Positions 3,288 through 33,120 of a stretch of DNA of 64,000 bases are shown here, one piece after another (within the stretch, counting starts at the first letter, position 1; every line of letters starts with the position of its first letter). Source of the stretch: Escherichia phage vB_EcoM_ESCO32; the sequence record OM386658.1; one strand, written 5' to 3'. The notes beneath the pieces are model-generated. The model was not told the origin of the DNA and made no database searches. It worked only from the letters and a program-made list of their open reading frames with translations. The translations under genes and the position numbers were made by a program.

Positions 3288-3764
3288 ATGTCTAAACGTT
3301 TTGGTCGTAATCAAAAAAGAAAGTTAAGTGCTCAACTAGCAGCTTTGCAAAAAGAGGTTAACACTTTACAAAAAAGTGTTTGTGAACTTAAGGAACAAAA
3401 CCAACTTGAAAAAGAGTGTATCCAGCTTACACAGGAAGTTATTGGTGAGTATTTTCCTTCACTAGTTCCTAAGAAGGTGGCTCTTAGGGAAAATCTACCT
3501 TTTACCTTGTCCTTAATGCAAGCAAATGATAGATTCCAAACTGAAACTGATGATTTGATGTTTGCAATGCATCAATTACATGGTTTAGAATATACAGCAC
3601 AAGTGGATAAACTTCGTAACATGTTATATGTGCGGGTAGAAACACCTAAAGGTGAGACAGTAGCTTTTAATTATAATTTCCAACAGCTACCTGATCATAT
3701 TATTGAACAAATTTTAAAACGAGATTTTGTTCCTATGCTTGTTAAACAAATTAAGAGAGGTTGA
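3288..3764 (+). CDS. hypothetical protein with N-terminal coiled-coil-like segment
   Basis: 158 aa; gggggaaat RBS; N-terminal heptad-like sequence (LSAQLAALQKEVNTLQKSVCELKEQNQLEKE). Confidence 0.4.
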   Translation: MSKRFGRNQKRKLSAQLAALQKEVNTLQKSVCELKEQNQLEKECIQLTQEVIGEYFPSLVPKKVALRENLPFTLSLMQANDRFQTETDDLMFAMHQLHGLEYTAQVDKLRNMLYVRVETPKGETVAFNYNFQQLPDHIIEQILKRDFVPMLVKQIKRG

Positions 3765-3765
3765 A

Positions 3766-6540
3766 ATGGCTAAGAAAGAGTTGAGCTTCACTCCGACAGA
3801 AGAGCAAACAGCTATTAAGGAGGCTTTTCCAGACCATCGCTTTTTAACTATCCAAGCTAAATCTGGGTCAGGCAAAACGTCAACACTTTATTTGCTGGCT
3901 AACAGTACAGAAGATCGCATTCTTTACTTAGCTTTCAATAAAAGCATGGCAGAAGAAGCACGACGTAAGATGCCACTAAATGTAGAATGCCGTACATTGC
4001 ATTCTATTTGCTATCAATTCCTGGATCATCGTTTACGTGCAAAACTGTCACGACCAGAAGGACAGTATGTTAACGTTGCAGGTACAGGTAGTGAGATAGC
4101 AAAGAAATTTAAGATTAATAATCTTATTGATAAACGAGGGAAAACACTTTTAACTCGTGCTATGATCGGTTTAATGATCAAGCAAACCGTAGGTAAGTTT
4201 GAATTTTCGGATGATCCTTTTATCAGCCGTAAACATTTTCCTAGTGTACATCTTGCAGATATTAAAAGAAAAGGTATTAACGAACACAAACTAATTACAG
4301 AAGTAGTTAAGTATGCAAAACAATTGTGGCGAGAGCGCATCGATCCTAACACAGACACTTTGATGACGCATGACACCTATGTAAAATTGTTTGAATTATC
4401 TGGTGCTGATCTTGGTTATGATATTATTTTTGGTGATGAATTCCAGGATGTTAACCCTGCATTCTTATCTATTCTGCGAAATGCTAAATCTGCAAAACAA
4501 ATTGTGGTAGTGGGCGATGAATTCCAATGTGTGTCGGAAAACACGGTACTTAATACCGAGAATGGTCAGGTTACAATGAAAGACCTGCAAATCGGTGATA
4601 AGGTAGAGTCTTATTCTAATGGTAAAGTTACATTTAGAAAAGTAACAAATAAGACTTTATCTACACGTACAAAAGGTAGGAATATTATTACTGCCACAGG
4701 TAAAACTTTAGATATGACACATAACCATCGTATTTGGGCTTCATCCTATGTTCTGAAAGATGATCAGATGGTGGTATACCTAATGTGGAGGAAAGATTTA
4801 GGTTTCCGAGTAGGGATCACTAACAAATTCGATGATAAAGAAGGTTTTTCTAAACTGGGGCAACGTACACGTTCTGAAAAAGCACAGAAATTGTGGGTGT
4901 TGGATATTGTTGAAAACCGTGAAGCTGCTATGGAAAAAGAAATGGCATACAGTTTACAATATGGCATTCCTACTTGTGTATTTGAAGCAAGTTCACGCGG
5001 CATTAATCAAGAAAGGATCAATAACATTTTTGAACAATTCGGACAAAACGGTTTTAAACTTTTAGAGGATAAAGATTATCATTTTGCTTATCCACATTGG
5101 CACAGCATCAATTGTGCAGTAGATGAAAGAAAAATGTTAACAGTGACTTTGCGAGCACAAGGTTGTAAAGGAACACAAGTTAGTTTTGAGTGGACAGAAA
5201 GTGAAATGTCAATCTATGCTTCACTCATTGAAGCAGGTGTAAGCGTAAGTGTTGCTAAGTTGGAAGGTCGTTACCGTGTACGTAAATATTTCAATTCTTA
5301 TCGTGAAGCATTGAGTTTTGCACAAAAGATCCTTGAAATAGTGCCGTTTGCATCTTTAAAAGAATGCATGTCCTCTGTGAACACCGCCAAATATACTTTA
5401 ATTCCGGCGGCGGGTTTGTTTAAAGGCATGTCTGTGTTGGTAAAAGATGGTGATACTGTAACGGCAGAAGAAATTGTGGACATTGTAGATAGTGAAGGTA
5501 TCTATTATGATATTGAAGTAGAGGATACTGCTAACTTCTTTGGCAATGAAATTCTTAGCCACAACTGCATTTATCAATTTAGAGGTAGCTCTAATATGAT
5601 GATTGAAACAGCTAAGTATGGGGCAGAGCTTCCATTAACTGCTTGCTTCCGTTTTGGCCCCAAAGTGGCAAACATTGCCAATATGATTTTAAGCGATAAA
5701 GAACCTTTGCGTCATCCTTTGGTTGGTAAAGGCTTTGATACTGTAGTAGGTAGCTACAAATCAGATGTTGTAGACTATACAAAACCTTACACTATCATCT
5801 TTCGCAAGAATTTAACCTTGCTTATGGAGGCAATGGATCGTATTGCAGATGGGGAAGAAATTATTATTAACGTAGACACCAGGGATTTTATCTCTATGGT
5901 AGATAGTGTTAATGCTCTTCGGAGAGGAGATATTGAGAAAGTAAAACATGAAACTGTATTACCTTACGCAGACTGGGATGAATTTGTTGAGTGTGCAGAG
6001 GCTGATCCAGATGCTAAACGCTTGTTAAACATTGTAGTTTCTGGTAAGGCAAACACTATAGCACATACACTTAGAACGCATAGAAATTCTCCTACAGCAA
6101 AAGTCACACTGACTACAGCACATAAGTCTAAAGGTTTGGAGTGGGATCAGGTTATTGTTGCTAATGATTTTCCTTCCAATTATGATAAAAAGACTGGTGA
6201 GTGGGTAGGACTAGAAGAGGCAGAGCGAAACCTACTGTATGTAGCGCATACCCGTTGTGTTAAATGCTTACAATGGAACACAACCGTACAGGAGATTATA
6301 GATATCAACCGTGTTGCAACAGAGAAAGTACCAACAAGCACCACTTTACCGATCAATGGTATTAAACTTGGTGTATTTGGCGCTGGCACATCTCGAAAAG
6401 CTGTAGAAAAATTTGTTGCAGATTCTTTTGATGGTAACTATAATCATGCACAAGCATATGAGAGTTGGCTAGAGGAAGGTGAAGGTGATTTTTTAGGTGA
6501 AATAAATCTTTTACCAGACATAAATAAACTGGTAAACTAA
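3766..6540 (+). CDS. UvrD/Rep-like superfamily I DNA helicase, interrupted by an intein
   Basis: Walker A AKSGSGKTST; motif II GDEFQDV; motif III split as VVVGDEFQ | intein | CIYQFRGSS. Likely start is MAKKEL at 3766 right after the upstream stop. Confidence 0.7.
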   Translation: MAKKELSFTPTEEQTAIKEAFPDHRFLTIQAKSGSGKTSTLYLLANSTEDRILYLAFNKSMAEEARRKMPLNVECRTLHSICYQFLDHRLRAKLSRPEGQYVNVAGTGSEIAKKFKINNLIDKRGKTLLTRAMIGLMIKQTVGKFEFSDDPFISRKHFPSVHLADIKRKGINEHKLITEVVKYAKQLWRERIDPNTDTLMTHDTYVKLFELSGADLGYDIIFGDEFQDVNPAFLSILRNAKSAKQIVVVGDEFQCVSENTVLNTENGQVTMKDLQIGDKVESYSNGKVTFRKVTNKTLSTRTKGRNIITATGKTLDMTHNHRIWASSYVLKDDQMVVYLMWRKDLGFRVGITNKFDDKEGFSKLGQRTRSEKAQKLWVLDIVENREAAMEKEMAYSLQYGIPTCVFEASSRGINQERINNIFEQFGQNGFKLLEDKDYHFAYPHWHSINCAVDERKMLTVTLRAQGCKGTQVSFEWTESEMSIYASLIEAGVSVSVAKLEGRYRVRKYFNSYREALSFAQKILEIVPFASLKECMSSVNTAKYTLIPAAGLFKGMSVLVKDGDTVTAEEIVDIVDSEGIYYDIEVEDTANFFGNEILSHNCIYQFRGSSNMMIETAKYGAELPLTACFRFGPKVANIANMILSDKEPLRHPLVGKGFDTVVGSYKSDVVDYTKPYTIIFRKNLTLLMEAMDRIADGEEIIINVDTRDFISMVDSVNALRRGDIEKVKHETVLPYADWDEFVECAEADPDAKRLLNIVVSGKANTIAHTLRTHRNSPTAKVTLTTAHKSKGLEWDQVIVANDFPSNYDKKTGEWVGLEEAERNLLYVAHTRCVKCLQWNTTVQEIIDINRVATEKVPTSTTLPINGIKLGVFGAGTSRKAVEKFVADSFDGNYNHAQAYESWLEEGEGDFLGEINLLPDINKLVN
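4528..5565 (+). mobile_element. intein (about 346 aa) inside helicase motif III, with a possible degenerate endonuclease core
   Basis: Begins with Cys (CVSENTVLNTENGQVTMKDLQIGDKV, block A-like); block B-like TxxH (MTHNHRIW); ends YYDIEVEDTANFFGNEILSHN followed by +1 Cys. The flanking exteins rejoin into a canonical helicase motif III. Confidence 0.6.
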
Positions 6541-18190: not shown

Positions 18191-18258
18191 TACTTAACTT
18201 GTGTTATGATGGTGGTACAGAGGTATCACCATTTACTAAAGAATATGGAGGAAAATGA

Positions 18259-19362
18259 ATGTCCAGTCCTTTTATCAGTGCCGTAAAAAGCAAACCGTCT
18301 GAAATGAGTGTATTCACGGCAACAACAGAAAAAAGTAAGTCTTTGTTTGCTCCAAGTGCTATGGATGCAAGCCCTGTATATGCCCCTGCTGTTGCACGAC
18401 CTGTACAAATGCTGCCTCCAATGTCTCGTGAAGAGATTGAACAAGTTGGTGCTGATGCAGGACTTACTCTTCGTAACCTTAATGCTGAAGTGCTTAAACA
18501 CCAACGTTCATCTCAGGGGGATGAAATGAGTGAACGTTTAACTGCACTTATTAAGCAAGCAAAGCAACTTGATCCTAACTCTATTAAACAATCTAAAGGC
18601 TTAGGTAAACTAGTTAAGAAAGTATTAGGTATGAAAGAAGATTTGTTTGGTGAATTTGACACCATCAATAATCGTATTGAAGGTTTGGTAAAGACACTAC
18701 AAACAGATTTGAAAAAAGAAGAAGATTCTTTACGATATCTGCAACGTTTAGAAGAGGCTATTGCAAAATATGCTCTTAGCTTAAACAGGGATATAGAGCT
18801 TCTAACAGCTACTTATGAAAAAGAAGAAGTTCGCCTTAATACACTACCTGAAAATGAAGTAGAAGAACGTCAACGTACTCGTGATACTATGGATCTGCTT
18901 GAAATTCGTATTGCAGACCTGAAAGCCTTGCGTTTACTGTGTGTTCAGATGGGGCCACGTGTACAAAGTATGCAGAAAGTATCTGCAAGTTTGATGCGAT
19001 CAGCCCGTAATATTGTGAATAATGTTATTCCTGCTTACTCTGCAAACTTTTCTATGTATATTGAAAGTCTACGCCAGAAGAAAGCAGCAGATACACAGAA
19101 CAATGTACTGAATGAGTTTAATGCTGCTATTGCAATGGGTAGTGATCTGGCTGCACAAAACCAAATTGAAGCTACACAACTTGCTAATCGTCAAGTATTG
19201 GATATTGAGACATTACGTCGCGATCAAGAAAACTTAGTTAAAATGTTGGAAGAAACTAATCGGATCAACACTGAAGCCCGTGCTGCTCGTATTGATTACA
19301 TTCAGGAAGTGCAATCTCTTGAAGATGGTATGATTCAAACTGTTAAACGTGGTCTACTTTAA
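18259..19362 (+). CDS. TelA/KlaA-like (toxic anion resistance family) protein, putative
   Basis: 367 aa largely alpha-helical protein. The call rests mainly on size, composition and its position between TerC-like and vWA/TerD genes; I cannot confirm the family from motifs alone. Confidence 0.3.
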   Translation: MSSPFISAVKSKPSEMSVFTATTEKSKSLFAPSAMDASPVYAPAVARPVQMLPPMSREEIEQVGADAGLTLRNLNAEVLKHQRSSQGDEMSERLTALIKQAKQLDPNSIKQSKGLGKLVKKVLGMKEDLFGEFDTINNRIEGLVKTLQTDLKKEEDSLRYLQRLEEAIAKYALSLNRDIELLTATYEKEEVRLNTLPENEVEERQRTRDTMDLLEIRIADLKALRLLCVQMGPRVQSMQKVSASLMRSARNIVNNVIPAYSANFSMYIESLRQKKAADTQNNVLNEFNAAIAMGSDLAAQNQIEATQLANRQVLDIETLRRDQENLVKMLEETNRINTEARAARIDYIQEVQSLEDGMIQTVKRGLL

Positions 19363-19375
19363 GGAGAAATATATT

Positions 19376-19582
19376 ATGAATATTAAAATTTACAAACTGT
19401 CTGGTTCTATGATCGCTGTCCAGTACGACAATGAAGATCGTTATGTTCTCCTCCAGGATGCTTGGTTAGATGATCCTAATGTATTTACTGTCCTGCGAGA
19501 ACTACGTTCTGTCTATACCTATTCTTCTAAAGATGGTTTTGATAGTTCAACGATGGAATTGGTAAAAGAGGAGAATGTGTAA
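19376..19582 (+). CDS. hypothetical small protein
   Basis: Start taken at MNIKIY after aaggagaaatatatt RBS. Confidence 0.35.
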   Translation: MNIKIYKLSGSMIAVQYDNEDRYVLLQDAWLDDPNVFTVLRELRSVYTYSSKDGFDSSTMELVKEENV

Positions 19583-19782
19583 TGAATAAAGATATTCACT
19601 TAACTCGTGAAGAATTACAAACCATTATGGAAGATGCTTTCATTGATGGTTGGAAACAAGGTCAAGAGTCAGATTGGTATGATGCCGAAGACTTTTTGTA
19701 TTATCATATGACTGCACCTGTAGACGAGCAAACACACTCTGAAACAACTTTGGCTATAATTGATCTTAAGGCTGGTGTATAA
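19582..19782 (+). CDS. hypothetical small acidic protein
   Basis: 66 aa ORF overlapping the upstream stop (ATGA). Confidence 0.35.
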   Translation: MNKDIHLTREELQTIMEDAFIDGWKQGQESDWYDAEDFLYYHMTAPVDEQTHSETTLAIIDLKAGV

Positions 19783-20345
19783 TGGGATGTTTTAGTTTCT
19801 TGTGCAAAGAATCTGGTAATGCTGCTCTTTCTACCTCTTTCGATGGCTCTCCTTGCTACCTATTTCTTTTGAAAGGTGGTAAAGTTGTTGAAGAGATGTA
19901 TGGCAATTATGATAGCTATGGTAGTGTTTTCTCTAACGAAGAAGATAAACATGGCAATCGTAAAAGATTCAAGTGGTCTATGTCTTGGGAAGAAGTTTGT
20001 AATTTGATGTTCTCTTCCGATCTTGGAGATGGGATTGCTCTGGTATTAGAAGAGCACTTTACAGGCGAGATCCCAACAGAAAGATCTGAAGAAGATCCTA
20101 ACCAGGGTTGGGGTGATGGGGAAGAAGATCCAGATTGCTTCTTCAGCACTGAAAATAATAAATTTAAATGTGTTGACAATCCTTACCACAAAGTGCATAA
20201 TACTTGCATTGAGACAGAAGAAGACTCAAAGCTAGAAATTGAAGATGATTTAGTTGTAACTATCTCTTTAAACGAGTTGCAAAAAATCACTAGAGAGGCT
20301 TTCTATTTAGGTTGGAAAGTAGGTAAAGGAGGAGATAGTGCTTAA
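19782..20345 (+). CDS. hypothetical protein
   Basis: 187 aa ORF, translationally coupled to the upstream gene. Confidence 0.4.
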   Translation: MGCFSFLCKESGNAALSTSFDGSPCYLFLLKGGKVVEEMYGNYDSYGSVFSNEEDKHGNRKRFKWSMSWEEVCNLMFSSDLGDGIALVLEEHFTGEIPTERSEEDPNQGWGDGEEDPDCFFSTENNKFKCVDNPYHKVHNTCIETEEDSKLEIEDDLVVTISLNELQKITREAFYLGWKVGKGGDSA

Positions 20346-20607
20346 ATTTAATATCAAAGACGACAAATCAGATGAACCTAAATGTTTTGGAGAACTTGAC
20401 GTAGGTGATACATTTGTATATTATGTTGCCTATCAAGATTCTGGTTTAGATACATTCAGAAATTTAGTGTTTATTAAGGTTAATACAAACCAAGCAATGT
20501 GTCTGAACGGTTCGCAAAGAGGTCAACTTAGCTGTATTTCGTATGATACAGAAATGGTAGAAGTGGATTTAGAAGTTACTAACATTACACTCAGAAAGGA
20601 GAAATAA
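20338..20607 (+). CDS. hypothetical protein
   Basis: 89 aa, GTG start after aaaggaggagata RBS. Confidence 0.35.
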   Translation: MLKFNIKDDKSDEPKCFGELDVGDTFVYYVAYQDSGLDTFRNLVFIKVNTNQAMCLNGSQRGQLSCISYDTEMVEVDLEVTNITLRKEK

Positions 20608-20608
20608 T

Positions 20609-21403
20609 ATGTCCAATAAAATCAGTCTTAAAAAACGTCAAGAAACTCTTACCGTATCTCTGCGTAAGAAAAAGATTAACGATGTTGTTCTTCGTGTCGG
20701 TAGTGCCTTAGATATTTCGGGTAGTATGTGTGAGCTGTATCGTGATGGCACTGTCAGTGATTTTGTAGGTAAGCTACTGCCGTTTGGTATGAAGTTTGAT
20801 GATAATGCACAGATTGACATGTGGGCTTTCAATAGTTCTTCTTTTGAACTGCCTCCTGCAACGGCTGATGTATATGATGATTATGTCGGCTCTTGTATGT
20901 CTAATGTTTGCATCAATGGTGGTACAGCTTATGCTCCAGTAATGCAAGAGATCTATGATACATACTTCGGTAGTGTACCTATGAAAAATATTACACGCGA
21001 AGTCGTTGAGTATGAAGAAGTTCCGGCTAAGGGTTTCCTTGCTAAACTAACTGGTAAAAAAGAACGTGTAGAAGTTACACGTACTGTTGTAGAACAGGTT
21101 GTAGATACTGATGCACAAGTTGATCGTACTCCTGCAATGATTTTCTTCCAAACTGACGGGGAGAACATGGATACTTCAGCAGTACGTAGTTTGCTGAACA
21201 AACACCGCAACACTCCTGTTTACTGGTTTATGGTTGGTGTAGGTAATGCAAACTTTAAATTCCTGAAAGACTTGGCAAAAGAATACGATAACGTTGATTT
21301 TATCGGTATTGCAGATTTGTCCTTGTCTGACGAAGAACTTTACGATAAACTGCTATCCGAAGAGTTTGGCGAGTGGGTTAAAAAATTTGGAGCAAAAGCG
21401 TAA
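20609..21403 (+). CDS. von Willebrand factor A (vWA) domain protein, TerY-like context
   Basis: MIDAS motif VLRVGSALDISGSM, a GGTAY Thr and a downstream FFQTDGE acidic residue; N-terminus MSNKISLKKRQETLTVSLRKKK echoes the TerD N-terminal repeat. Confidence 0.5.
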   Translation: MSNKISLKKRQETLTVSLRKKKINDVVLRVGSALDISGSMCELYRDGTVSDFVGKLLPFGMKFDDNAQIDMWAFNSSSFELPPATADVYDDYVGSCMSNVCINGGTAYAPVMQEIYDTYFGSVPMKNITREVVEYEEVPAKGFLAKLTGKKERVEVTRTVVEQVVDTDAQVDRTPAMIFFQTDGENMDTSAVRSLLNKHRNTPVYWFMVGVGNANFKFLKDLAKEYDNVDFIGIADLSLSDEELYDKLLSEEFGEWVKKFGAKA

Positions 21404-21410
21404 AAAACGC

Positions 21411-21438
21411 TTGACTTTGTAGAAAAGATTAGTAAAAT
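21411..21438 (+). promoter_or_regulatory. sigma70-like promoter candidate upstream of the TerD-like gene
   Basis: TTGACT (21411-21416), 16 nt spacer, TAAAAT (21433-21438); about 37 nt upstream of the aaaggagataat RBS. Confidence 0.4.
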
Positions 21439-21475
21439 AGACAACGTAAATTAACAACAAAGGAGATAATAAATT

Positions 21476-22072
21476 ATGACTCAGAAAATTTCCCTGAAAA
21501 AAGGTTCTAGCGAAAAAGTTTCTCTGAAAAAGATTGCACCAGCACTGAAACGCATTCGTCTGGAATTCTCTTGGAAATCTAACGAAAAACTGGATCTGGA
21601 TGTTAGTGCTCTGATTTGCCGACACAATGCATCTGGTCTGCCGGAACTGTTGTCTCCTCGCCACCTGGTATGCTACGCACAGAAATTTGATCCTGAACGT
21701 TCTACTTTTGCAGGTGAAGATGTTCGTGACGGTGTAGGACAAATGGAGCAGATTGATGTTACACTGGATAATATCTCTGCTGAAGCACAGGAAATTGCAT
21801 TCGTAATCACTATTGATGACGAAACGGGTAAGAAACGCCTTGGTCACGCTACCGAAGGTTTCCTTAAAATCTTCGATGATGAACGTAACGTTGAACTGCT
21901 GGATTTTGACTTCTTGGCTCCAGAACTTGCAGGTAATACCATTTGCCACGTTGCCTCCCTGGTGCGGGAAGATAGCGAATGGAAACTGAAAGCATATGGT
22001 GTAGGTAAAGCTGGACTTGACATTTATGATGTAGTTAAAGCGTTTGGCGCTGGCGACGATTGGTTCGAGTAA
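21476..22072 (+). CDS. TerD-domain protein (tellurite resistance / stress protein family)
   Basis: MTQKISLKKGSSEKVSLKK N-terminal repeat, LDLDVSALIC, acidic clusters (GEDVRDGVG, ITIDDETG) and the general layout of a 190-200 aa TerD domain. Confidence 0.65.
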   Translation: MTQKISLKKGSSEKVSLKKIAPALKRIRLEFSWKSNEKLDLDVSALICRHNASGLPELLSPRHLVCYAQKFDPERSTFAGEDVRDGVGQMEQIDVTLDNISAEAQEIAFVITIDDETGKKRLGHATEGFLKIFDDERNVELLDFDFLAPELAGNTICHVASLVREDSEWKLKAYGVGKAGLDIYDVVKAFGAGDDWFE

Positions 22073-22081
22073 TAAATCATA

Positions 22082-22104
22082 GCGCCCTTCTGGGCGCATA
22101 TTTT
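22082..22104 (+). terminator. intrinsic terminator
   Basis: gcgccc-ttct-gggcgc followed by atatttt. Confidence 0.55.
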
Positions 22105-24078: not shown

Positions 24079-24642
24079 ATGATATTTCACATAACTCCCT
24101 ATCTTTCTGGAGATATTGGAAAAGGTATCAATGACACAATAAGTGTCTTACCAGAAGATAGTTGGATTTGCCTAAGAGACATTGATACAATGTTTCTTCT
24201 TCCAGAACAACCTGCTTGGCTGGAATCAATAGTCCGTTCAAATCCTGATTTTGATGTTCTTGGTGCATCTTGTAATAGATTGGGATCAACATATCAATTA
24301 TTTAATAATGAAAGAAGTGAAGATCCAAATATATTACACCACATTGAGATTGCAAAAAGAGCACATCTAGAATGGGGAAACTCAATAGAGGAAGTACCTA
24401 CAGATGCTATCTTAGCAGGATTCTTTCTTCTCTTTCGTAAGAGCCTGTGGAATGAAATCCCTTTTGAGGAAAGATCAATACAGTTTGATATAATTTTCTC
24501 TAAAGCATTGCACGCTAACAATAAAAGGCTAGGTTTACTACGTGGGTTATATTTATTTCACACATACCGTTTAGGTAATGATGATCCTAGAAAAGCTATT
24601 TCACACCTTTTACATTGTCAAGACATGAATAAAATTATTTAA
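24079..24642 (+). CDS. hypothetical protein, possible glycosyltransferase-like
   Basis: 187 aa with acggagggag RBS; contains DID (LRDIDTMF), a possible DxD motif. Weak. Confidence 0.25.
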   Translation: MIFHITPYLSGDIGKGINDTISVLPEDSWICLRDIDTMFLLPEQPAWLESIVRSNPDFDVLGASCNRLGSTYQLFNNERSEDPNILHHIEIAKRAHLEWGNSIEEVPTDAILAGFFLLFRKSLWNEIPFEERSIQFDIIFSKALHANNKRLGLLRGLYLFHTYRLGNDDPRKAISHLLHCQDMNKII

Positions 24643-24651
24643 GGAGTTATT

Positions 24652-25338
24652 TTGGAAAATACAAAAATTGGTGTTGGTGTTATTACTGTAGGTAAGCGTC
24701 CTCTTAAAGATTATCTTGTGACTGATCCTAATGCTACTTTTGTTGTACAGTATGATCGGGAACGAAAAGGTGTTGCATATGCTCGTAATGAACTGATGAA
24801 AAAGTTTTATGATGAAGGGTATGATTACTGGTTTATTTTTGATGATGATTGCTATCCTGTTGTTCAAGGTTGGGAAACATATTTTGTAAAACAAGCGAAG
24901 GAAAATGGTTGGGATTTCTTTGGTATGCCTGAATACTTTAAAGATAAAGTAAAAGGTATTGAAGGGGAAGTGGTTATTTGGGAACTAGGTATGTGCCAGT
25001 TTGGTATGTATTCCCGTGCAGTTATTGAGAAAGCTGGCTATTTCCGCTCATACACCCACGGTTATGGATATGAAGATGCAGAGTGGATTCATCGCGTTCC
25101 ACTGGCAGGTTTGAACCGAGGTATTCAAGGCGTGCCATGTCCTATTCGAATTATGGCGTTTATCCATCCTGATGATGTATTTGGAGACAATCCTTTACCT
25201 TTTGCGAATCTGTCAAAAGAAGAGAAAGAACAGGGTATTGGTGTAAACTGGGAACAATATAAACAATCCCTGGAGGATCTTCGCAATGGTAAAACTTTTA
25301 TCTCTTATGAGGAGGCTCAAAAATATGGTAAATCCTAA
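24652..25338 (+). CDS. glycosyltransferase (GT-A fold, DxD type), putative
   Basis: N-terminal GVGVITVGKRP and YWFIFDDDCYPV (DxD-like acidic motif after a hydrophobic strand); TTG start after aaggag. Confidence 0.4.
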   Translation: MENTKIGVGVITVGKRPLKDYLVTDPNATFVVQYDRERKGVAYARNELMKKFYDEGYDYWFIFDDDCYPVVQGWETYFVKQAKENGWDFFGMPEYFKDKVKGIEGEVVIWELGMCQFGMYSRAVIEKAGYFRSYTHGYGYEDAEWIHRVPLAGLNRGIQGVPCPIRIMAFIHPDDVFGDNPLPFANLSKEEKEQGIGVNWEQYKQSLEDLRNGKTFISYEEAQKYGKS

Positions 25339-26299
25339 TACTCCTGTACTTAAGTGTGATAATAAGTTAGGCAGTGGTTGTGATTACCATCGTATTGTAA
25401 TGCCATTTGCTGGAAATACGTTTAAACCTAAGAAAGACGTTTTAGTTTTTAATAGAGTGTATTCTCGTGGAGCAGACGAGGTTAAACGCCTGAAGGCACA
25501 AGGTGTTAAGATTATTGTTGATTTAGATGACTTTTATTCACTTAATCCTGAACATTATATGGCTGGCGTATTTACTAATCATTCAAAGACTATTGTAGAG
25601 ATGGTTAAGTTAGCAGATGTTGTTACTGTAACAACAGAATACCTAGCTTACAAAATTCGTCATTTAAATCGTAATGTTGTCGTAATTAGAAACGCACTAC
25701 CTTACGACGAAGGTCAATTTACTTTGACAAAAGACCGTAATTCTGACACGCCTATTATCTGGGCTGGAGGAGCAAGCCACGAGCCTGATTTATCTCTTGT
25801 AGCTAATACATTTGATGATACACTATTGACAATTGCAGGGTATGAAGTGTATCCTTCTGCACCTGTTGGAAATAACAGTCAGTATCTAACTACTGCGGAG
25901 TGGGTTAAAGTAAAACGTAAAATTCCAAATGCACAGTATAAACCAGCTATTAAAAATTTAGGTGAGTATATGTCTGTGTATGACGGTCACAGTATTGCAA
26001 TTGCTCCCCTGGTAGATAATGACTTCAACAACTGTAAAAGCAATTTGAAGATTTTGGAAGCAGGTGCAAAGGGTCTTCCTATTATCTGTTCTCCTGTGCT
26101 GCCGTACTTCAATCCGGTAGATGCAAAGGCTGTTATCTATGCAGACTCTAAAGCATCTTGGCATTATGAAGTTGTCAAGCTAATGAGGAACCCTAGATAC
26201 ACAGAAGATCGTGGTATGATGCTTGCAGAACACGTTCGTCTTAATTATAATCTTGCAGATGCCAATGAACTGCGTCGTCAAGTTATTGAAAGTCTTTAA
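25325..26299 (+). CDS. glycosyltransferase-like protein, paralog A
   Basis: Shares blocks with the next gene (DYHRIVMPF / DFHRIILPY; ISIAPLVDNDFNNCKSNLKILEAGAKGLPIICSP / ISIAPLVNNHFNNAKSNLKILEAGAKGLPLVCSP); the EAGAKGLP block resembles GT-B C-terminal motifs. Confidence 0.4.
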   Translation: MVNPNTPVLKCDNKLGSGCDYHRIVMPFAGNTFKPKKDVLVFNRVYSRGADEVKRLKAQGVKIIVDLDDFYSLNPEHYMAGVFTNHSKTIVEMVKLADVVTVTTEYLAYKIRHLNRNVVVIRNALPYDEGQFTLTKDRNSDTPIIWAGGASHEPDLSLVANTFDDTLLTIAGYEVYPSAPVGNNSQYLTTAEWVKVKRKIPNAQYKPAIKNLGEYMSVYDGHSIAIAPLVDNDFNNCKSNLKILEAGAKGLPIICSPVLPYFNPVDAKAVIYADSKASWHYEVVKLMRNPRYTEDRGMMLAEHVRLNYNLADANELRRQVIESL

Positions 26300-26310
26300 C
26301 AAGGAGTTAT

Positions 26311-27255
26311 ATGCCTAATATTATTCTTGACACACGCGGAAATGAAAAGTATAGTGTATGTGATTTTCATAGAATCATTTTGCCATATAAACGCAAACTG
26401 ACCATTAATCCTAAGCATAATATTTTTGTGTTCAATGGAGTACCAACACGTGGAAAGCCAGGTTTCCTGGCTCTTAAACAACTTGGGTTTAAATTGGTAA
26501 TGGATCTGGATGATTCTTTAATTATTCCTGAAGGGCATATGCTTGAAGGATTATTTGAAAATCAAATCCGAGATGACCTAAAATGGTTCCTTGAAAGAAG
26601 CGATCTTGTAACTACAACAACTCCAGCATTAAAGGTTGAATTAAGCCAATACAATGATAATGTACATATTGTGCCTAACGGACTACCTTTTGATGAAGGA
26701 CAGTTTGTTCTTACGAAAGATCGTTATTCTAAAAGTCCACTGGTTTGGGCGGGAAGTGAAACACATAAACATGATTTAGCAATTCTTCCTGCTTTTGGTA
26801 AAGAGTTAACTTTATGCGGATTTCGTAGAGATCACGAAGAGTTAAGTAGTGCTCAATGGTTGCAAATTAAAGAAGATATTCAACCAGATTGTGTTTATGA
26901 AGGTATTCGTCCTTATGAGTGTTATATGGAAGCATACGATGGTCATCAAATCTCCATAGCTCCATTAGTAAATAATCATTTTAATAATGCCAAAAGTAAT
27001 TTAAAAATTCTTGAAGCTGGTGCTAAAGGTTTGCCACTCGTTTGTTCGCCACGGGAGAACTATTATACTGAAGAATTTAAAGATCTAATCTTCTTTGCTG
27101 ATTCAGTTAAAGAGTGGAAAGATATTGTAGAATACTTAATCGAATCTCCTGACGTTTGTATTGAGAAGGGATTGGCTCTTGCTAAGTATGTAAGAGATAA
27201 CTACAATATTGATGATTTAAATGAAACCCGCAGACTGCTTATCGAGGATTTATAA
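26311..27255 (+). CDS. glycosyltransferase-like protein, paralog B
   Basis: Tandem diverged duplicate of 25325-26299; aaggagttat RBS. Confidence 0.4.
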   Translation: MPNIILDTRGNEKYSVCDFHRIILPYKRKLTINPKHNIFVFNGVPTRGKPGFLALKQLGFKLVMDLDDSLIIPEGHMLEGLFENQIRDDLKWFLERSDLVTTTTPALKVELSQYNDNVHIVPNGLPFDEGQFVLTKDRYSKSPLVWAGSETHKHDLAILPAFGKELTLCGFRRDHEELSSAQWLQIKEDIQPDCVYEGIRPYECYMEAYDGHQISIAPLVNNHFNNAKSNLKILEAGAKGLPLVCSPRENYYTEEFKDLIFFADSVKEWKDIVEYLIESPDVCIEKGLALAKYVRDNYNIDDLNETRRLLIEDL

Positions 27256-27524
27256 TGAACACTTTTGATTTTGAGTATAAACAAGATAATAAAGAACCTA
27301 TTATTGTTGAAGTAGATTACTATTATGAAGAACCTAATCCTTTCTCACGAGAAAGTGATTGGGATTATTATGGTGGCCTTATTGTTGATGGTATTAGGTT
27401 CTATTCTGGTACAAAAGAACTTTTTGATATAGATATTTCCCCATCGGAAATTGTTTACCAATTTAAGAAACATATGGAAGATTTGGAAATGCAATATATT
27501 ATGGAGACAAACGAATCATTTTAG
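27255..27524 (+). CDS. hypothetical small acidic protein
   Basis: 89 aa ORF overlapping the upstream stop. Confidence 0.35.
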   Translation: MNTFDFEYKQDNKEPIIVEVDYYYEEPNPFSRESDWDYYGGLIVDGIRFYSGTKELFDIDISPSEIVYQFKKHMEDLEMQYIMETNESF

Positions 27525-29805: not shown

Positions 29806-32800
29806 ATGGGAGCTTTTACTTTCGACATTGAAAGTAACAACTTGCTTAATGACGAAAGTGTAGATTACTTGGCAAGTCCATATCGTTTAAAAGATAGTTT
29901 TGCAATGCACTGTATTGTGTGCGAAAGTCATGATACTGGAGAGATTATTGCTTTCCATGATGGTGATAAATATCTTTTCGATGGTCGTCCGTATGTTGAG
30001 ACTGACGGAAAGTATGAATACCGACTGGAGGAATATGAGCATTTAGAATATACCCATTTCCCTCTTAAAGATTTTCCTGATTTTGTAAATGGAACAGGTA
30101 AATTTAAAGGTAATTCAAACTATAAAATTACCAAAGTAGTTGGACATAACATCATTAACTTTGACTTACTGGCAATTAAATTATTTTTTAAACTCAACTA
30201 CAGTATTAAGTACAATACTTGGGGTAATAGTAACATTGAAATTTGTGATACTATGATCTTAAGTAAGACACTAAACCCTGATCGCTTCGGTGGTCATAGT
30301 CTGGCAGAGTTATCTAAGAAGGCTGGAGGGGATGTTAAAATTGATTTTAGAAAAAACATTCCTGAAACTGAAAGATTTAAAACATTTGCAGCAGATATGC
30401 TGTATTACTGTATTTACGATAACAAAGCTAACACCGCAGTGTTCCGTTATTTGATGGAAGAGTGGGGTGATTATAATAAGTGGTCTGAACCATTTAACTT
30501 AGAACAACGTGTAGCTGATATTATTACACGTCAAGAGCACCGTGGCTTTGCTTTCAATATGAAACAAGCAGAAGATAATATTCGTGATCTGGATGCTCGA
30601 ATGGAAGCATGTCGTTTAGAGGCAGAACCTGTGCTACCTCCTAAACCTGCTACTAAAGGTTATTTGAAATCATTCATTCCACCTAAACTACAGTTTAAAA
30701 AGAATGGTGAACCTTCAAGTAACATGATAAAGTTTGCAGAGAAACATTCTGGTGAACTTGTACAAAAAGAAGATGGTTGGTGGCTATTTGCATTAGGTAA
30801 AGAGTTTAAACTACCTATTCCAGCAGAAGAACCTATTTGTGATCCTACAGTACCTGCTACTTTAGACGACACTACACATATTAAAAACTGGTTAGTTGGT
30901 TTAGGTTGGAGTCCATCTGAATATAAAGATAAAGATATCACTCTTAAATCTGGCACTAAGATTAAGAAAGATGAAGCACAGATGGAGAAAGCTATTCGTG
31001 ACTATGTTGATCAAACGTTAGCATCTAATTTCTGCCAGGACAGATGTGATCATCTGGAGTGCACACCAGAAACTTTGGAATGGAAACTAAGAGATCGTAT
31101 TGCTAAAGCTAAAGGTCGTGGTGTTAAAGTGCTTACTAACCCTTCCTTTACAAAAGGGCAAGAGAAAGATATTTGTCCTAACTTGGAAGCACTAGGTGAA
31201 AAGTTTCCTTATGCTACGCAGATTGTGCAGTATCTTACGTATAAACACCGTAGGAACTCTATTCTAGGGGGTGGTGCTGATTGGGAAGAAGATGAAGAGG
31301 ATTATGATAAAGGTTATCTGGCAGCAGTAAGGGCTGATGGTCGTATACCAACTCCTGCTGCAACGTGTGATGCAGCTACGTCTCGTATGAAACATAGGTT
31401 AGTAGCAAATATCCCACGTGTAACATCTCTGTACGGATATGAAATGCGTAACTTATTTGGTGTAGAAGTTCCAAAATACTTCCAAATTGGTTATGATTTT
31501 GATTCTCTTGAGGCAAAAATAGAATCACACTACTGTGTACCTATGGATGCACAAGCACTAACCCGTAAAGGTTGGGTTGGTTATCACGATCTACAAGAAG
31601 GGGATGAAATCTTAGGATATAACCCAGAAACAGGACTTAAAGAATGGACTAAAGTAAAAGGTAAGGTCTTCTATAAAAATAGTAAGACGTTTGAGATTAA
31701 AGGAAAATCCCATACTTACCGTGCAACAGCAGATCACCGTTGGTATGTTAATACCCGTAGTAAAGGGAATACTTATGTGCCTAAAGTCAGAACAACTGCC
31801 GAGCTTTGCACAGGAGATAATATTATTTGTAATGCTCCATTTAACATGGAACAAGATCAGGTAAATAGTTTAACTTCTGTTCAACAAGGTAAATGGGATG
31901 TTCCGTGGGTAGAGCGTGTAGTTAATATGTCTCATGCCGAGCGTGTAGCTTTCTTGGAAGGTTTCTTGATTGCAGATGGTTACTGGCATGAACATAAACA
32001 AAAACCTGTTTGGCGTTGGGCGCAGAACCCAGGTGAACTTTTTGAAGCAGCTTTAACTGCCTCGTACCTGGTGCATGGAGGCAATATCTCTGTAGCTTTC
32101 AATACAAAAGAGCAGAAAGTAAAAGTGGCAACATTGGCTAACCGCTCTCACATTCCTGTTCAAAGTTTGACTATTGAAGAGTGGGGTGTAGAGGATGTTT
32201 GGTGTCCACAAACAGAACTTGGTACGTGGGTCATGCGTCAGAAAGACTGCATTACCATCACAGGAAACTGTTGGCGGTACGAGCAGGAACCACACGAATA
32301 TTGTAATGCTCTATTATTGGAAAAACCTAATGATGTTCATACAATGATGGCTCGACGTATTTCTGACACTATTGGTCGTAAGTTTGAACGAAGCCCTGCT
32401 AAATCTGTTAAGTATGGTATTACTTATGGTGCTCAAGCTGCAAAAGTAGCAAAAACTATAGGTAGTGATATGTATACCGGACAGCTTGTATACGATGCTT
32501 TCTGGGAAGCTGCAAAACCTCTTGCGCTTCTTAAAGAACGTCTGCATGACTTTTGGGTTAAAACAGGTAAGAAATACATTCTGGGTATTGATGGTAGGAA
32601 AGTACCTACACGATCTGCACACGCAATACTTAACTCTCTGTTCCAGAGTGGTGGTGTTATTTGTGCAAAAAGAGCAATGGTTATCTACGACGATCTTATC
32701 GAAGAAGAAGGATTAGCTGTTGACTTTTTTGTTGATGACTGGAAAAATAAGTCATTCGTTCAACAAATGATTGCATATCACGATGAAGCACAGCTTGAAG

Positions 32801-33120
32801 TAACTCGTGATCTGGTGCATTTTAAATGGTTCTCTAAAGAATCTTTAGGTTGGACTCAAGTTGATGATCCAGAAGAACAAAAGAAAATTGATAAAGAATG
32901 TTTGGATAAAGTTAATGCCTGGAAAGAAGAGGAAGAGAAACGTACTGGCAAGATTTGGGCTAACGTACATGAATCTCCGAAAGGTGGTTGGTTTACAGCC
33001 TACAGTCGTGCTGGAGAATTAGCATCTATCGCTGTTAATAAAGCTGGTGAGTATTACAATCTTAATGTACCTCTCACTGCTGGTTACGATGTTGGTAACT
33101 CATGGGCCAGTTGTCATTAG
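29806..33120 (+). CDS. family A DNA polymerase (T7 gp5-like) with 3'-5' exonuclease domain, interrupted by an intein
   Basis: Exo I FTFDIESNNL; RFGGHSLAEL; motif A region GYDFDSLEAKIESHY; motif B RSPAKSVKYGITYGAQ; ILGIDGRKVPTRSAHAILNSLFQSGG; C-terminal GYDVGNSWASCH. These parallel T7 gp5 as I recall it. Confidence 0.85.
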   Translation: MGAFTFDIESNNLLNDESVDYLASPYRLKDSFAMHCIVCESHDTGEIIAFHDGDKYLFDGRPYVETDGKYEYRLEEYEHLEYTHFPLKDFPDFVNGTGKFKGNSNYKITKVVGHNIINFDLLAIKLFFKLNYSIKYNTWGNSNIEICDTMILSKTLNPDRFGGHSLAELSKKAGGDVKIDFRKNIPETERFKTFAADMLYYCIYDNKANTAVFRYLMEEWGDYNKWSEPFNLEQRVADIITRQEHRGFAFNMKQAEDNIRDLDARMEACRLEAEPVLPPKPATKGYLKSFIPPKLQFKKNGEPSSNMIKFAEKHSGELVQKEDGWWLFALGKEFKLPIPAEEPICDPTVPATLDDTTHIKNWLVGLGWSPSEYKDKDITLKSGTKIKKDEAQMEKAIRDYVDQTLASNFCQDRCDHLECTPETLEWKLRDRIAKAKGRGVKVLTNPSFTKGQEKDICPNLEALGEKFPYATQIVQYLTYKHRRNSILGGGADWEEDEEDYDKGYLAAVRADGRIPTPAATCDAATSRMKHRLVANIPRVTSLYGYEMRNLFGVEVPKYFQIGYDFDSLEAKIESHYCVPMDAQALTRKGWVGYHDLQEGDEILGYNPETGLKEWTKVKGKVFYKNSKTFEIKGKSHTYRATADHRWYVNTRSKGNTYVPKVRTTAELCTGDNIICNAPFNMEQDQVNSLTSVQQGKWDVPWVERVVNMSHAERVAFLEGFLIADGYWHEHKQKPVWRWAQNPGELFEAALTASYLVHGGNISVAFNTKEQKVKVATLANRSHIPVQSLTIEEWGVEDVWCPQTELGTWVMRQKDCITITGNCWRYEQEPHEYCNALLLEKPNDVHTMMARRISDTIGRKFERSPAKSVKYGITYGAQAAKVAKTIGSDMYTGQLVYDAFWEAAKPLALLKERLHDFWVKTGKKYILGIDGRKVPTRSAHAILNSLFQSGGVICAKRAMVIYDDLIEEEGLAVDFFVDDWKNKSFVQQMIAYHDEAQLEVTRDLVHFKWFSKESLGWTQVDDPEEQKKIDKECLDKVNAWKEEEEKRTGKIWANVHESPKGGWFTAYSRAGELASIAVNKAGEYYNLNVPLTAGYDVGNSWASCH
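31534..32268 (+). mobile_element. intein (about 245 aa) after polymerase motif A, with LAGLIDADG-like motif
   Basis: Starts CVPMDAQALTRKGWVGYHDLQEGDEIL (block A-like); TADHRW (block B TxxH); AFLEGFLIADGYW (LAGLIDADG-like); ends ...CITITGN followed by +1 Cys. The region between motif A and the HTMMA block is about 245 aa longer than the T7 gp5 equivalent. Confidence 0.55.

Follow-up and report, generated by a model that had tools for sequence, protein, structure and literature searches.

The analysis concerned a cassette of four consecutive glycosyltransferase (GT) genes in Escherichia phage vB_EcoM_ESCO32 (record OM386658.1), within a stretch of 64,000 nucleotides (nt) that is called the window throughout. 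The cassette occupies positions 24079-27255 in window numbering. Nucleotide identity over 24079-27255 was 99.3% to outra and to vB_EcoM_ESCO8, and 98.6% to phi92; the window was therefore taken as part of a Justusliebigvirus (Stephanstirmvirinae) genome, its plus strand corresponding to the minus strand of the records of phi92 and of the complete sister genome alia. The four open reading frames (ORF) of the cassette, with lengths in amino acids (aa), and the gene at its downstream boundary were as follows:

ORF1, 24079..24642, + strand: 187 aa, ATG start; ortholog of phi92 gp166, with a DxD site (D34-x-D36) and His161.
ORF2, 24652..25338, + strand: 228 aa, TTG start; ortholog of phi92 gp165, with the motifs FIFDDDCYP (DxD) and YGYED.
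ORF3, 25325..26299, + strand: 324 aa; ortholog of phi92 gp164, a CgeB-like GT-B enzyme and the conserved core copy of a paralogous pair.
ORF4, 26311..27255, + strand: 314 aa; ortholog of phi92 gp163, a CgeB-like GT-B enzyme and the derived, fast-diverged paralog.
Downstream boundary gene, 27255..27524, + strand: acidic protein of 89 aa, phi92 gp162-like; PHROG 4240, function unknown.

The ATG of ORF1 was preceded at 5 nt by a Shine-Dalgarno sequence (GGAGG). The frame of ORF3 was also open from 25286; its start was taken as 25325 because AGGAGG lies upstream of it and because the phi92 annotation and the homolog P0088 begin there. Intergenic gaps from ORF1 on to the gp162-like gene were 9, -14, 11 and -1 nt, and the packing of ORF1 to ORF4 in one direction was operon-like. 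The start of the gp162-like gene overlapped the stop of ORF4. This gene was also found 3' of the cassette in the Klebsiella phage KP2025, in a 135-kb metagenomic phage contig (L011) and in a Phapecoctavirus-like contig of 144.8 kb (L027; Logan SRR22520433), and the phi92 annotation notes give a homolog of its protein in PVP-SE1 (gp008); it is a constant follower of the cassette, yet probably not a cassette member. The slot of the cassette in this phage was in the replication module, between the endolysin/Ter genes and the primase/helicase. A scan for promoters and terminators found no excess of sites and no boundary within the cassette, and was uninformative on timing. None of the four proteins had a transmembrane segment (0/4; maximum KD19 1.2), and all were soluble and mostly acidic.

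As stated by the first-pass annotation, which had been made from the letters and their reading frames, four consecutive GT-like genes were present on the + strand at 24079, 24652, 25325 and 26311, and GT folds or signatures were found in all four proteins; the first-pass description was accurate wherever it could be checked. ORF1 was a minimal GT-A enzyme, with a single Rossmann-like alpha/beta/alpha domain and a DxD site. The family of ORF1-type GT-A domains comprised 1208 clusters at 50% identity (946 of them with E below 1e-10) and had no Pfam model; many of its members were of about 400 aa, with the ORF1 domain fused C-terminal to a TOD1/MUCI70-like GT domain. ORF2 was putatively assigned, from its motifs, to the GT-A enzymes with DxD and YGxED signatures. 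Its FIFDDDCYPV motif, noted previously as of the DxD type, was present with D64-D66 invariant, as were Y138-G139-x-E141-D142. PHROG GT families matched ORF2 strongly (PHROG 2456, E 2e-79), and its match to the Pfam TET-associated GT family (TAGT, PF20691) scored 24.1 bits, under the gathering score of 27.5, with the alignment confined to the Rossmann/DxD region. Pfam GT2 and Glyco_transf_7C matches to ORF2 were sub-threshold or borderline; among the 19 members of its family, TAGT matched 12, GT2 6 and Glyco_transf_7C 4.

ORF3 and ORF4 were CgeB-like Glyco_trans_1_2 proteins (PF13524), that is, GT4-like GT-B enzymes, and both fell in PHROG 7162 (E 8.5e-149 for ORF3). Two Rossmann domains with a cleft between them were found, and the Pfam score was over the gathering threshold. 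The top structural neighbours of ORF4 were sucrose-phosphate synthase, TreT and GlgM, and in the structural comparison the T4 enzymes AGT and BGT had the same GT-B fold as ORF4. Against PDB sequences, searched with single sequences and with profiles, the GT-B family had only weak matches, to MshA and TreT, and ORF1 and ORF2 had no match of use. NCBIfam and PADLOC returned no matches for any of the four cassette proteins.

The claim that the frames at 25325 and 26311 are paralogs at the protein level was borne out (BLASTP, 40% identity, E 2e-80), and both motif blocks quoted for the pair were found. So was the accompanying claim of an old duplication, diverged at the nucleotide level and with both copies kept. 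Over 312 aligned codons the two genes were identical at 41% of amino acids and 52% of nucleotides, the proportion of synonymous differences (pS) was saturated at 0.76, and the longest exact nucleotide word in common was 9 nt. Orthologs of both copies were present in phAPEC8 (73% and 76% identity within orthologs, 38-41% across paralogs), so that the duplication predates the split of Justusliebigvirus and Phapecoctavirus. Compared with the phAPEC8 orthologs, the proportion of nonsynonymous differences (pN) was 0.18-0.20 against a pS of 0.78, from which both paralogs are under purifying selection. The single GT-B of KP2025 was 67% identical to ORF3 and 38.5% to ORF4, 15 out of 16 remoter homologs had their better score with ORF3, and the branch leading to ORF4 was long; on these grounds ORF3 was regarded as the conserved core enzyme and ORF4 as the derived copy.

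In some relatives a single in-frame hybrid of ORF3 and ORF4 replaced both paralogs (P0077, P0085 and P0086). Hybrid P0077 (L027:6001-6945), the sole GT-B between ORF2 and the gp162-like gene in its contig, changed from ORF3-like to ORF4-like near residue 120, at the GT-B inter-domain boundary. Hybrids P0085 and P0086 switched near residue 220, at the KSNLKILEAGAKGLP block. The hybrids look like deletion-fusions through recombination of the tandem copies, and as such natural swaps of acceptor and donor domains.

A complete set of genes for dTDP-L-rhamnose was found outside the window, in alia, where gp189-192 corresponded to RmlA, RmlB, RmlC and RmlD and adjoined ribonucleotide reductase genes. 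The Pfam E-values were 3.5e-77 (NTP_transferase), 1e-81 (GDP_Man_Dehyd/Epimerase), 2.4e-72 (dTDP_sugar_isom) and 1.1e-73 (RmlD_sub_bind), respectively. RmlABCD and the cassette were about 70 kb apart in the genome. In tblastn searches of a phage database, RmlC on the one hand and ORF1, ORF3 and ORF4 on the other had a near-identical distribution among the matches listed. Both RmlC and the GT genes occurred in Klebsiella phages of the phi1_175008 type, in the phiWec18x/PsgM04F group and in the genera Justusliebigvirus and Phapecoctavirus; among the tblastn matches listed for the GT-B and for ORF1, neither Vequintavirus nor Seunavirus was represented. The phi92 annotation notes give PVP-SE1 homologs for both flanking genes and none for gp163-166. 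With this match of the flanks but not of the cassette, and with the co-distribution of the rml genes, the cassette appears to be an inserted accessory element that moves together with the rhamnose pathway.

Variants of the cassette shared a common syntenic slot, just upstream of the gp162-like gene and the primase/helicase. The slot held ORF1 and an ORF3-type GT-B in KP2025; an NDP-sugar epimerase/dehydratase, ORF2 and an ORF3-type GT-B in L011; and ORF1, ORF2 and one ORF3/ORF4 hybrid in L027. The Phapecoctavirus ESCO37 (OM386659; PMC10269720) was without rmlA and rmlB, yet kept at least an ORF4-type GT gene; either the first steps towards the dTDP-sugar are taken by its host, or growth in the laboratory does not require the pathway. 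Four records labelled as Campylobacter phages with C. jejuni as host (A150, MG065639; C3, MG065656; A145, MG065645; B15, MG065650) were 97-99% identical across these genes to Justusliebigvirus or Phapecoctavirus of E. coli, and their host labels look doubtful.

The cassette as such is a rediscovery, its annotation as GT having been known since phi92 gp163-166. The phi92 record labels gp166 as 'predicted glycosyl-transferase fold', gp165 as 'polypeptide GalNAc-transferase 2 fold', gp164 as 'GT-B fold' and gp163 as 'trehalose-synthase TreT fold', RefSeq names all four 'glycosyltransferase', and the BASEL phage EmilieFrey carries two genes labelled 'putative glycosyltransferase' and two labelled 'putative disaccharide synthase'. 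The phi92 genes and their orthologs (phAPEC8 gp071-074, EmilieFrey bas61_0046-0049) are the same genes as those of the cassette. Within Justusliebigvirus, the cassette was 98.6-99.3% identical at the nucleotide level; the Phapecoctavirus orthologs had 66-76% protein identity with order and slot unchanged. From the phi92 group the present cassette did not differ materially; the start of ORF2 in this window was TTG. The rhamnose pathway of these phages was previously pointed out by Olsen et al. (2020), and a paper on Stephanstirmvirinae (Arch Virol 2025) is silent on these genes. What is added here is an argued case against modification of DNA, the distinction of core and derived paralogs, the modular variants, and a pointer from genomic context to glycosylation of proteins or virions.

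Glycosylation of a protein or of the virion had not been among the options of the first-pass annotation, from whose view RmlABCD lay outside; it is favoured here because of the genomic contexts of distant homologs. In small phages, genes of the ORF3/ORF4 or ORF1 family lay within the module for packaging and head formation or bordered on it. In L012, a GT-A(7C) gene and a GT-B gene immediately preceded terS, terL and the portal and capsid genes; a family gene directly followed terL in L018, and was upstream of terL, portal and capsid genes in L019. In L015, a family gene preceded, at a distance of a few kb, a hexapeptide-repeat gene, a GT2 gene, terS and terL, and in L008 one lay between terL and portal, with genes for a GT2, a polysaccharide deacetylase, two Methyltransf_24 proteins and a UDP-galactopyranose mutase. 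Cellulophaga phage phi18:2 gp39 (L020:7317-8540) lay between the portal/MuF and the protease/major capsid genes, beside a Methyltransf_24 gene. Further relatives were located in large sugar-nucleotide clusters. Bacterial homologs of the ORF3 type were beside autotransporter adhesins in two of three loci and in a fimbrial island in the third. Among isolated phages outside its own clade, the relatives of ORF2 were only GT encoded at the right-hand end of the genomes of Cheoctovirus mycobacteriophages (26% identity to Mycobacterium phage Bobi gp102, E 3e-13; tblastn matches in 351 Mycobacterium-phage records), and capsid glycosylation has been reported for the Cheoctovirus phages Che8 and Rita (PMC11256854).

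Three details of these loci are recorded apart. In phi18:2, gp38 is labelled 'DNA methylase' and was a Methyltransf_24 protein, of the sugar O-methyltransferase type. In Burkholderia dolosa (L007:3025-8440) the ORF3-type GT-B adjoined an autotransporter of the intimin/invasin type, and in L014:100-5501 it adjoined one of the pertactin type, followed by more GT4 and GT2 genes. The latter two loci may be an uncharacterised system of adhesin glycosylation.

It is tentatively proposed that the cassette decorates a protein, probably one of the virion, with a glycan that contains rhamnose. The four soluble cytoplasmic GT and the dTDP-L-rhamnose pathway of the phage (RmlABCD) would then form one assembly line, whose product would be an oligosaccharide of few sugars, rhamnose among them, borne not by DNA but most probably by a virion protein. 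What the enzymes act on, in which order and with which sugars is inferred as follows. ORF3 would attach the first sugar to the acceptor, being proposed as the initiator by analogy with CgeB and as the universally retained member. The metal-dependent GT-A enzymes ORF1 and ORF2 would lengthen the chain; ORF1 would be the best candidate for the rhamnosyltransferase, using dTDP-Rha, because the minimal set of the Klebsiella phages consists of ORF1, an ORF3-type GT-B and rml. The derived ORF4, as a neofunctionalised copy, would add a further sugar or serve a second acceptor. The fuller statement, that a strictly lytic phage of a Gram-negative host coats one or several of its virion proteins with a rhamnose-containing O-glycan that a CgeB-like GT starts and that two GT-A enzymes and a duplicated GT-B extend, is doubtful; if true, actinobacteriophages would no longer be the only phages with a 'glycan shield'. 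Less likely is the related variant that the cassette re-creates the O-antigen of infected cells or alters it.

Two known systems resemble the proposed one. With virion glycosylation of the Che8 type, in which gp108-110 are reportedly the characterised enzymes, it shares a phage-encoded set of several cytoplasmic GT. ORF2 was homologous to a GT that occurs in hundreds of mycobacteriophages, Cheoctovirus and others (Bobi gp102, not Che8 gp108-110), and the position of distant family members in head modules beside Methyltransf_24 genes is a likeness to actinobacteriophages. The present case differs in having a Gram-negative host, a 148-kb myovirus genome, a dTDP-rhamnose pathway of its own and a cassette in the replication module. 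The second is the spore crust of Bacillus subtilis, whose toolkit (CgeB, SpsA/CgeD/YfnE and SpsIJKL) has the same list of parts as the phage. CgeB is a GT-B of about 317 aa that is reported to act as a protein O-GT on Thr112 of the spore-crust protein CgeA; the crust glycan has rhamnose, made by SpsIJKL, and GT-A enzymes, SpsA for one, extend the chain (PMC13577073, PMC10502511). This likeness is an analogy only, linked through the family name of PF13524, and the phage differs by having neither a CgeA homolog nor legionaminic-acid genes.

Several observations weigh against a protein-bound glycan on the virion. Virions of phi92-like phages have no reported glycoprotein, the cassette is in the replication module and not in the structural module, and Che8 gp108-110 had no significant BLASTP or profile match to ORF1-4. 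The contexts described above are those of distant homologs (25-45% identity) and may not transfer to this phage. The Ser/Asn-rich tail at the C-terminus of the sheath protein was considered as acceptor and rejected, as its distribution does not follow the cassette: the sheaths compared from Phapecoctavirus and from Klebsiella phages of the Stephanstirmvirinae had no such tail, and Vequintavirinae sheaths have short tails of their own, though these phages are without these GT.

DNA bases and host surface glycans were the two targets offered by the first-pass annotation. Glycosylation of the DNA, which was also proposed by Olsen et al. (2020), would place sugars (rhamnose) on hydroxymethylated or activated bases of the phage DNA, globally or at rare sites, and so block nucleases. 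It would agree with a cassette that abuts primase/helicase and DNA polymerase genes, with a weak match to PHROG 842 (beta-glucosyl-HMC alpha-glucosyltransferase) and with a GT-B fold common to T4 AGT and BGT. The TAGT family as best Pfam match of ORF2 and a C5-cytosine methylase encoded elsewhere in the genome recall the TET/JBP-TAGT systems, but the TAGT score was below the gathering threshold, and a scan of about 30 proteins of the window and alia, either unannotated or of nucleotide metabolism, found neither a TET/JBP domain nor a ThyA-type enzyme. The absence of a hydroxymethylase gene from the window was confirmed, and a ThyA-type dCMP/dUMP hydroxymethylase was annotated neither there nor in the complete alia genome. 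The wider search for hydroxymethylase or base-modification genes, for which the first-pass annotation had looked to the rest of the genome, returned from alia flavin-dependent ThyX (PF02511) as the only thymidylate-synthase homolog, with the C5-cytosine methylase and several N6-adenine methylases. To our knowledge, all hydroxymethylases derive from the ThyA fold. T-even phages glucosylate their DNA with the dCMP hydroxymethylase gp42, one or two GT (alpha/beta) and UDP-glucose of the host, whereas here no hydroxymethylase was found, the DNA is restriction-sensitive, and four GT are accompanied by a pathway for a deoxy-sugar donor. Maffei et al. (2021, PMC8594841) call phages of the phi92 type 'exceptionally susceptible' to restriction-modification systems, and this 'despite ... 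a putative dTDP glycosylation machinery'. HincII cut the genomes of all ESCO phages but three unrelated ones (PMC10269720); ESCO8/9 and the Phapecoctavirus isolates were thus cut, since the three resistant phages are others, and ESCO8 carries a cassette 99.3% identical to the present one. Glycosylation of DNA bases is hence disfavoured; we regard it as very improbable.

The host surface stood as a target, at the level of an unlikely one. The GT would act at the inner face of the inner membrane on undecaprenyl-linked or lipid A-core intermediates (O-antigen, lipopolysaccharide core, enterobacterial common antigen, NGR or colanic acid), and the changed surface glycans would exclude superinfecting phages or prevent the adhesion of progeny to debris. 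Neither the cassette nor the annotated genome showed a priming transferase, a flippase, a polymerase or a membrane anchor, a lytic cycle allows little time for the export of a remodelled glycan, and the position of small-phage family members in head-morphogenesis operons would be left unexplained. Modification of the O-antigen of the Gtr type (flippase GtrA, bactoprenol GT GtrB and membrane protein GtrC) did not correspond to the cassette either, with no Gtr-like genes annotated and no transmembrane segments. A soluble product or a host-protein target is more improbable still. The cassette would in that case make a free glycoside or disaccharide, or would modify a cytoplasmic protein of the host, in the way that EarP rhamnosylates EF-P. 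The BASEL label 'putative disaccharide synthase' suggests it, as do the structural neighbours of ORF4, which make small saccharides, with the weak PDB profile matches to TreT and MshA, the solubility and mostly acidic character of all four proteins, and the vicinity of a Ter/PRTase/HAD module, a proposed maker of a nucleoside-like metabolite. The phi92 notes, however, give PVP-SE1/rV5 matches for several genes of the Ter region and for both flanks and none for gp163-166; with the lack of Vequintavirus and Seunavirus GT records among the matches listed, this makes the Ter module and the GT cassette separable. A compatible solute is not known to be of evident use to a lytic phage, and the head-module context of the relatives would again be left unexplained.

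About 6.5 kb is spent by these phages on four GT and a full rhamnose pathway, and the DNA glycosylation that is the default reading in the literature conflicts with their sensitivity to restriction. Phages of the phi92 and phAPEC8 types have among the broadest host ranges of coliphages and are candidates for therapy. If the glycan is on the virion, antibody recognition, stability and pharmacokinetics of therapeutic phages would be affected, and virion glycosylation would be extended to Gram-negative phages; if the host surface is changed, lytic phages would have a new mechanism of exclusion.

Other genes of the window and of alia were recorded alongside the cassette. Upstream of it, a Ter-type module (12713-22072, + strand) comprised a HAD hydrolase, a PRTase_3 (ComF-like) protein, a Macro-domain protein, TerC, TelA, a vWA-TerF-like protein and TerD, and ended at a GC-rich hairpin (22082-22097). 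The module appears independent of the GT, and some genes of the Ter region have PVP-SE1/rV5 homologs in the phi92 notes. In alia, the ThyX gene was at L005:22340-23311, outside the window, and an NT5C-like nucleotidase and a thymidine kinase adjoined it. The UvrD-like helicase of the window (3727-6540, + strand) had 937 aa with an intein at about residues 267-613 (Pfam Intein_splicing, Hint), against 578 aa in the alia ortholog. The family-A DNA polymerase (29806-33120, + strand) was 1104 aa long in the window and in phi92, whereas the alia and EmilieFrey enzymes had 859 aa. Its additional 245 aa or so contained a LAGLIDADG-like 'FLEGFLIADGYW' motif, with the Pfam Hint models short of E 1e-3, and the insert is probably an intein with a homing endonuclease.

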